Source: Escherichia coli
GTDB taxonomy: Bacteria; Pseudomonadota; Gammaproteobacteria; Enterobacterales; Enterobacteriaceae
Direction: 5' to 3' (one strand)
Length of the DNA: 64,000 bases
Assembly (NCBI RefSeq): GCF_024298765.1
Contig: NZ_CP101210.1
Made by a program: the position numbers. Shown here in pieces: positions 36,001-39,000 of the stretch. Each line of letters opens with the position of its first letter. Position 1 is the stretch's first letter.

Positions 36001-39000
36001 TAAAACTTTCCAGGGCGCTGTCGCCGCTGACGCTAAGTTTCATAGCGTTATTGCTGCCCGTATCGTTAGCGGTGATGGACAGACGATATTCGCCGTTTCC
36101 CACATTGATGATACTGGCGCTGACACCAGCTTTGGCGTTGTTAATGGCATCGCGAATGCCGGAAAGTGACGAGTTACCCGCGCTGATATCAATCGTGACC
36201 GGATCTTTACCGCCGCCTTGTTGGATGGTCAGTACGCTATCGCTGGTGGCGATGGCGGCTTTACTGTCTTTTTGACTATTTTTTGTTGTCAGCGTCTGTG
36301 CCTGCGCCAGTTGGCTAACGCTAATGGTGTATTTCCCAGCAATCGCGCTGCCCGTGGTGGTGGCGCTGAAAGCCGATGAACTGCTGGTGGTTGAGGTGGC
36401 GGTAAATAAATCGGCTTTATTCAGTGCTGTGTTGGCTGTCTGGAAACTCTCTAGTGCACTTTTCAGCGTCCCGTAGGCGCTCAGTTTCGCGGTGTAAGAG
36501 CTTTGCTGTTTTGATATCGGCGTCAGGGTAGATTTTTCTGCCGCCTCCAGACTGTCAAGGATGCTGCTTAAGTCCAGCCCCGACCCAACCCCAAGCGTTG
36601 AAATACTAGCCATATAGTTTCCTTAATCATGCGACGTGTATAGAACGAATACCGGGGTTATCGGCGTAAGCGGGGTAAAGTTTACGATTTATTTTTTGCC
36701 TTAATGGCACGAACAGCAACGAGGAAGGGGAGTATTTCGACCGCTAGAAAAAAATTCTAAAGGTTGTGAGTGACCAGACGATAACAGGGTTGACGGCGAC
36801 GAAGCCGAAGGGTGGAAGCCCAATACTTAAACCGTAGACTTGAAAACAGGAAAATGAATTATGGCACAAGTCATTAATACCAACAGCCTCTCGCTGATCA
36901 CTCAGAACAACATCAACAAAAACCAGTCTGCGCTGTCGACTTCTATCGAGCGCCTCTCTTCTGGTCTGCGTATTAACAGCGCTAAAGATGACGCCGCGGG
37001 CCAGGCGATTGCTAACCGCTTTACTTCTAACATCAAAGGTCTGACTCAGGCCGCACGTAACGCCAACGACGGTATTTCTCTGGCGCAGACGGCTGAAGGC
37101 GCGCTGTCAGAGATTAACAACAACTTGCAGCGTATTCGTGAACTGACCGTTCAGGCCTCTACCGGCACGAACTCTGATTCCGACCTGTCTTCTATTCAGG
37201 ACGAAATCAAATCCCGTCTTGATGAAATTGACCGTGTATCTGGTCAGACCCAGTTCAACGGTGTGAACGTGCTGTCGAAAAACGATTCGATGAAGATTCA
37301 GATTGGTGCCAATGATAACCAGACGATCAGCATTGGCTTGCAACAAATCGACAGTACCACTTTGAATCTGAAAGGATTTACCGTGTCCGGCATGGCGGAT
37401 TTCAGCGCGGCGAAACTGACGGCTGCTGATGGTACAGCAATTGCTGCTGCGGATGTCAAGGATGCTGGGGGTAAACAAGTCAATTTACTGTCTTACACTG
37501 ACACCGCGTCTAACAGTACTAAATATGCGGTCGTTGATTCTGCAACCGGTAAATACATGGAAGCCACTGTAGTCATTACCGGTACGGCGGCGGCGGTAAC
37601 TGTTGGTGCAGCGGAAGTGGCGGGAGCCGCTACAGCCGATCCGTTAAAAGCACTGGATGCCGCAATCGCTAAAGTCGACAAATTCCGCTCCTCCCTCGGT
37701 GCCGTTCAAAACCGTCTGGATTCTGCGGTCACCAACCTGAACAACACCACCACCAACCTGTCTGAAGCGCAGTCCCGTATTCAGGACGCCGACTATGCGA
37801 CCGAAGTGTCCAACATGTCGAAAGCGCAGATTATCCAGCAGGCGGGCAACTCCGTGCTGTCTAAAGCCAACCAGGTACCGCAGCAAGTTCTGTCTCTGTT
37901 ACAAGGCTAATGGCCTTAACCTGCCTGACCCCGCTACCGGCGGGGTTTTTTCTGCCCGCAATTTACCGGTAACCCCCAAATAACCCCTCATTTCACCCAC
38001 TAATCGTCCGATTAAAAACCCTGCAGAAACGGATAATCATGCCGATAACTCATATAACGCAGGGCTGTTTATCGTGAATTCACTCTATACCGCTGAAGGT
38101 GTAATGGATAAACACTCGCTGTGGCAGCGTTATGTCCCGCTGGTGCGTCACGAAGCATTGCGCCTGCAGGTTCGACTGCCCGCGAGCGTGGAACTTGACG
38201 ATCTGCTACAGGCGGGCGGCATTGGGTTACTTAATGCCGTCGAACGCTATGACGCCCTACAAGGAACGGCATTTACAACTTACGCAGTGCAGCGTATCCG
38301 TGGCGCTATGCTGGATGAACTTCGCAGCCGTGACTGGGTGCCGCGCAGCGTGCGACGCAACGCGCGTGAAGTGGCACAGGCAATAGGGCAACTGGAGCAG
38401 GAACTTGGCCGCAACGCCACGGAAACTGAGGTAGCGGAACGTTTAGGGATCGATATTGCCGATTATCGCCAAATGTTGCTCGACACCAATAACAGCCAGC
38501 TCTTCTCCTACGATGAGTGGCGCGAAGAGCACGGCGATAGCATCGAACTGGTTACTGATGATCATCAGCGAGAAAACCCGCTACAACAACTGCTGGACAG
38601 TAATCTGCGTCAGCGGGTGATGGAAGCCATCGAAACGTTGCCGGAGCGCGAAAAACTGGTATTAACCCTCTATTACCAGGAAGAGCTGAATCTCAAAGAG
38701 ATTGGCGCGGTGCTGGAGGTCGGGGAATCGCGGGTCAGTCAGTTACACAGCCAGGCTATTAAACGGTTACGCACTAAACTGGGTAAGTTATAACGTCAGT
38801 AAATGCCGCACTTTAACTTTGACTACCAGGAGTTCTTAATGATGGTGCAGCACCTGAAAAGACGGCCATTAAGCCGCTATCTTAAAGACTTTAAACACAG
38901 CCAGACTCATTGCGCGCATTGCCGTAAATTACTCGATCGCATTACCCTCGTTCGCGACGGCAAAATAGTGAATAAAATCGAGATTTCCCGCCTGGACGCG

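Follow-up and report, generated by a model that had tools for sequence, protein, structure and literature searches.

The gene at nucleotides 36861-37910 of the window, by which we mean the whole 64,000-nucleotide stretch of Escherichia coli DNA that was analysed, is read here as the chromosomal prototype fliC-H4 allele, a class 3 gene transcribed by FliA and coding for a flagellin with a small β-rich surface domain. We put the probability of this reading at about 97%, and no feature of the sequence speaks against it. In length, mass and restriction fragment pattern the gene equals that of the prototype strain U9-41, and it is therefore assigned to that allele. The allele itself is already known and long characterised, and 349 amino acids is the normal length for the type. 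The original prediction had described an unusually short flagellin, compared with a K-12 FliC of about 498 amino acids. The K-12 figure was correct (fliC of MG1655 measures 1497 bp and specifies 498 amino acids), and "unusually short" holds against K-12 but not for H4, whose published standard length is 349 amino acids.

The translated product has a computed mass of 36,290 Da (36.3 kDa). Pfam searches revealed Flagellin_N (PF00669) at residues 5–141 (E-value=4e-47, 160 bits) and Flagellin_C (PF00700) at residues 262–347 (E-value=3e-32, 111 bits), and the protein scored 497 bits against the NCBIfam FliC/FljB model NF005294, which has a cut-off of 387. With both domains above the curated thresholds it is, as judged from its sequence, a member of the FliC/FljB family, and the predicted flagellin reading frame was borne out. 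BLASTP analysis against K-12 FliC showed the last ~89 residues to be near-identical, and no meaningful alignment was obtained for the middle. Compared with the H48 flagellin of K-12 (filament structure 8cxm), the gene occupies the same locus, has the same sigma-28 hexamers and specifies D0/D1 parts with at least 90% identity, but its central region comprises ~85 amino acids against ~230 in H48 and bears no meaningful similarity to it. This agrees with the earlier description of conserved termini enclosing a much reduced centre.

The published PCR/RFLP typing scheme for H4 (Beutin et al. 2005, PMC548302) was applied to the window in silico. With binding sites at 36767 and 38009, primers fliC-5/6 would yield 1243 bp, the published size; primers fliC-1/2 give 953 bp. 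The fragments generated by HhaI (362, 304, 104, 66, 50, 29, 20, 16 and 2), HpaII (296, 240, 225, 159 and 33) and MboI (429, 313, 182 and 29) are those published for fliC-H4 of U9-41; neither of the variant RFLP patterns, P7d and P12b, fits the gene upon in silico digestion. In the same study all of the H4 reference strains possess a fliC of 1050 bp which codes for a protein of 349 amino acids and 36.3 kDa, and the H48 flagellin of K-12 is given as 498 amino acids and 51.3 kDa. Strain U9-41 (O2:K1:H4; AB028472, BAA85081) is thus matched in length, mass, both amplicons and three sets of fragments, and by these comparisons no difference from it was detected. A flagellar antigen other than that of K-12 had been predicted, and the two are indeed distinct, namely H4 and H48.

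The gene is also 100% identical, over all 1050 nucleotides, to the annotated fliC of the O104:H4 strains FDAARGOS_348 and FDAARGOS_349. The protein product is a single RefSeq entry common to O104:H4, the human urinary isolate 81009 and MSHS 133, the last being the genome which best matches the window. No published compilation of FliC lengths covering every H type was found, and the amplicon range of PMC548302 was used instead: the internal fliC amplicons of the 53 H-type reference strains measure between 950 and 2500 bp. At 953 bp, H4 is therefore close to the lower limit of the known range but still within it. The value of the assignment is that it names the flagellar antigen of the strain as H4, which is useful for in silico serotyping. 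The O104:H4 outbreak strain carries this antigen, as do most ST131 isolates according to published work. As a discovery it matters little, this being an ordinary, known H4 flagellin gene.

The fliC gene of the window is 149 codons shorter than that of K-12, and this difference is the sole point in favour of regarding the short gene as an artefact, produced by assembly collapse or by the recent loss of an internal segment from a longer fliC. Collapse of an internal repeat was the event which the original prediction named as capable of overturning it. No tandem repeats were found in the 1050 nucleotides of fliC, and the sole direct repeat is a 13-nucleotide pair which resembles a chance match; there is, in other words, no internal repeat able to collapse, and the reading frame is intact. 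Using megablast, 760 of the 5426 complete E. coli genomes (~14%) were found to match the gene over 80% or more of its length, and in 740 of these the best match was at least 99% identical, many being 100% identical across 1050 nucleotides. Since hundreds of genomes finished independently of one another share the identical sequence, the short fliC is not an assembly artefact. Furthermore, length and restriction map equal those of the H4 reference determined by Sanger sequencing in 2005, and the central 85 amino acids constitute a distinct, conserved domain with homologs in other genera rather than a remnant of the K-12 protein. Collapse and deletion were rejected on the cross-genome identity, the lack of repeats and the restriction map, and the chance that either is correct is in our view negligible.

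It was also considered that fliC-H4 might be present but silent, with a flagellin from a second locus being expressed, so that the filament surface would not be H4. H17 is listed as one of the antigens for which a gene other than fliC has been reported, and all of the H17 strains studied carry the fliC-H4 genotype (PMC548302), so that they provide a precedent for strains which have fliC-H4 but express a different flagellin from another locus; a paper on the H17 flagellin deals with flnA and unilateral phase variation. Nevertheless, the H17 strains which were examined expressed the H4 antigen (PMC548302), and the MboI and HpaII patterns predicted here are those of the U9-41 prototype and not of the P12b variant. 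A tblastn search of the 64-kb window found neither a second flagellin gene nor a phase-variation partner, and both sigma-28 promoters are intact. We consider a silent gene very unlikely, and infer that fliC-H4 is expressed in this strain.

The gene order around fliC is canonical, with fliT-fliS-fliD lying upstream on the minus strand and fliA, fliZ, tcyJ and dcyD following downstream on the plus strand (Table 1). The window was scanned for the sigma-28 consensus TAAAGTTT-N11-GCCGATAA. Four matches were discovered, the two best of which are located in the fliD-fliC intergenic region. Alignment with K-12 revealed that both pairs of hexamers are identical to those of K-12, while the spacers and flanks differ; the promoters of fliC and fliD are intact, as had been anticipated.

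Table 1. Location of fliC-H4, its subdivisions, its regulatory signals and the neighbouring flagellar genes in the window
Feature	Position	Strand	Basis or remark
fliT	34407-34772	-	ORF; MSHS 133 annotation
fliS, flagellin export chaperone	34772-35182	-	ORF; MSHS 133 annotation
fliD, filament cap protein, 471 aa	35198-36613	-	ORF; MSHS 133 annotation; divergent from fliC
Sigma-28 promoter of fliDST, TAAACTTT-N11-GCCGATAA	36684-36658	-	1 mismatch to consensus
Sigma-28 (FliA) class 3 promoter of fliC, TAAAGGTT-N11-GACGATAA	36758-36784	+	2 mismatches to consensus
fliC, prototype H4 allele	36861-37910	+	ATG-to-TAA ORF, 349 aa, RefSeq WP_000079759.1
Conserved N-terminal D0/D1 part, codons 1-175	36861-37385	+	90% identical to K-12 FliC aa 1-175
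H4-specific hypervariable region, codons 176-260	37386-37640	+	Not alignable to K-12
Conserved C-terminal D1/D0 part, codons 261-349	37641-37907	+	Flagellin_C; near-identity to K-12
Intrinsic terminator of fliC, 9-bp GC-rich stem followed by T run	37927-37953	+	Terminator scan; hairpin and T run at 37927-37947, 17 nt past the stop codon
fliA, sigma-28 factor reading the fliC and fliDST promoters	38074-38793	+	ORF; MSHS 133 annotation

The N-terminal D0/D1 part of flagellin contains the export signal, contributes to the filament core and includes the part of D1 which is recognised by TLR5. An AlphaFold model of the window protein, built from 28 homologs, predicted long helices at residues 7–39, 45–100 and 106–129. 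The long D0/D1 helices are as expected; confidence for D0 was low, which is common when a monomer is modelled. In the hypervariable region the model gave a block with pLDDT values of ~79–91 which is rich in β-structure, its five strands falling within residues 199–252; the mean pLDDT was 83 when the central part was modelled alone. The model thus suggests that the ~85-residue middle forms a single small β-rich surface domain.

Foldseek matched the full-length model to solved flagellar filaments, among the best structural matches being Salmonella FliC delta(204-292) (PDB accession number 9iwq), an engineered, D3-deleted protein which still forms filaments. In the copy of the PDB which was searched there was no significant match to the H4 central domain, no chain matching the H4 flagellin over its whole length, the best sequence match being K-12 FliC in two separate stretches, and no experimental structure of the H4 filament or its outer domain. 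A minimum-size functional E. coli flagellin, which Kuwajima engineered in 1988 with a reduced outer region, reportedly still assembles. Such engineered, reduced flagellins show that a filament can assemble when the outer domain is small. They were obtained by deletion from larger proteins; the H4 allele occurs naturally, and its small outer domain has a distinct, conserved fold. It is among the shortest natural E. coli flagellins, and shows that one small surface domain suffices for a functional filament.

Flagellins of ~349–365 amino acids with the same architecture are present in the protein database for other Enterobacterales. That of Enterobacteriaceae bacterium FGI 57 is 89% identical to H4 overall and 75% identical in the central domain. 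The central domains of Pantoea and Pluralibacter gergoviae flagellins show 47–60% identity to that of H4, and those of Enterobacter (E. hormaechei and E. asburiae) and others show 26–41%; overall identity for Pantoea, Pluralibacter and Enterobacter is 73–80%. The termini of the short flagellins from other genera have diverged at the level seen between genera, with 82–93% identity in the N-terminal part. Hypervariable flagellin forms are generally species specific (Hu and Reeves 2020). The H4 variable domain, which has homologs outside E. coli, is therefore a mild exception to this rule.

Variation was also seen within the type. Length variants of H4 with 339–361 amino acids exist, some of which have insertions or deletions in an alanine-rich stretch near residue 245. 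Among the proteins whose variable domains were compared (P0032, P0036, P0040 and P0034), P0034, an E. coli flagellin of 351 amino acids, shows only 64% identity to H4 in this domain. It may represent a distinct H4-like type.

From established flagellar biology, FliA-RNA polymerase would transcribe fliC as a class 3 gene after completion of the hook-basal body, and FliS would keep the FliC monomer competent for export. The flagellar type III export apparatus would then secrete the protein, which is expected to polymerise under the FliD cap. In the filament the conserved N- and C-terminal D0/D1 helices would build the core. The 85-residue middle would form the surface and carry the H4 epitopes, in a position where K-12 H48 has a far larger D2/D3 region.

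Literature on other strains shows that H4 filaments assemble and drive motility. Among ST131 strains of serotype H4, 135 of 136 were motile, and isogenic strains carrying H4, H1 or H7 were equal in motility, adhesion and invasion, with induction of IL-10 being higher with H4 than with H1 or H7 (PMC4637896). K-12 strain JM109 carrying cloned fliC-H4 was agglutinated by both H4 and H48 antisera, and the presence of both flagellins in one filament was discussed by the authors (PMC548302).

The stretch from 35361 to 37860, which runs from within fliD across the intergenic region and takes in almost the whole of fliC, shows one or two mismatches with 81009 and with O104:H4 strain FDAARGOS_349, and the flanking genes differ from those of 81009 and O104:H4 by about 1–2%. 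On these alignments it looks like a shared fliD-fliC H4 cassette which has been horizontally exchanged or recombined. The FliD protein of the window (471 amino acids) is only 79% identical to K-12 FliD (468 amino acids), and the differences are distributed over its full length. The cap protein seems to vary in step with the type of flagellin.

Downstream of fliC the window differs from K-12. The gap between fliC and fliA is 163 nucleotides (37911-38073) against 320 in K-12, and the fliC 3'UTR is only ~40 nucleotides long. A REP-containing block of ~155 nucleotides which precedes the terminator stem in K-12, where it makes up the body of the sRNA FliX, is absent, as it is from the other H4 loci examined; homology resumes at the stem, which is conserved with K-12 together with the sequence downstream of it. 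In the RefSeq annotation of K-12 FliX, with 195 nucleotides, lies between fliC and fliA; FliX-S, the short form which is active, contains one of the K-12 REP sequences (Melamed et al. 2023). The FliX seed was placed by eye, by comparing the primer used for the M1 seed mutation (Melamed et al. 2023) with K-12 in the alignment. In K-12 the seed falls within CAGCAACGTGC, just upstream of the terminator. By the same visual comparison the triplet GCA mutated in M1, within CAGCAACGUGC, corresponds to UUA in the window, and a hand count of GGCCTTAACCTGC in the window against GTCAGCAACGTGC in K-12 gave 8 matching positions out of 13. No Rfam family matched the fliC 3'UTR of the window, and in K-12 only the REP-associated ES036 was recognised there.

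The K-12-type long 3'UTR region is covered to at least 80% in 3503 of the 5426 complete genomes. Among the rows sampled, most of the remaining genomes, 81009 and an O177:H21 strain among them, have a match which begins only at the terminator, and roughly one in three complete E. coli genomes has the short 3'UTR form. Perhaps H4 strains, O104:H4 and 81009 included, lack the negative feedback which FliX exerts on flagellin and ribosomal-protein mRNAs in K-12, or have it rewired; this is a tentative suggestion which we think is rather unlikely to hold.

Several other features of the window were recorded. Between fliE and yedF, at ~26500-30700, the identical stretch of MSHS 133 is annotated with emrE, ybcL and ybcM, and after these with transposase pseudogenes (IS200/IS605 and IS5) and a truncated gene for a SOS-response-associated peptidase. 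In K-12 emrE, ybcL and ybcM belong to prophage DLP12, and this stretch would therefore represent a mosaic insertion, scarred by IS elements, within the flagellar region. At ~48500-64000, after a tRNA Gly-Cys-Leu cluster, there are P2-like prophage genes, among them ogr, a hok/gef toxin gene and genes coding for tail sheath, tube, tape measure, tail fibre and baseplate proteins. An ORF of 495 amino acids (49873-51360, plus strand) lies between ogr and a gpD-like gene and has no Pfam or PADLOC match. The prophage part diverges from MSHS 133; ORF ends differ, and the gpD-like ORF has 413 amino acids in the window compared with only 801 nucleotides in MSHS 133. Finally, the Rfam search located the sRNAs RseX (5137-5226, minus strand) and DsrA (13563-13649, plus strand), each at its expected place in this chromosomal region.
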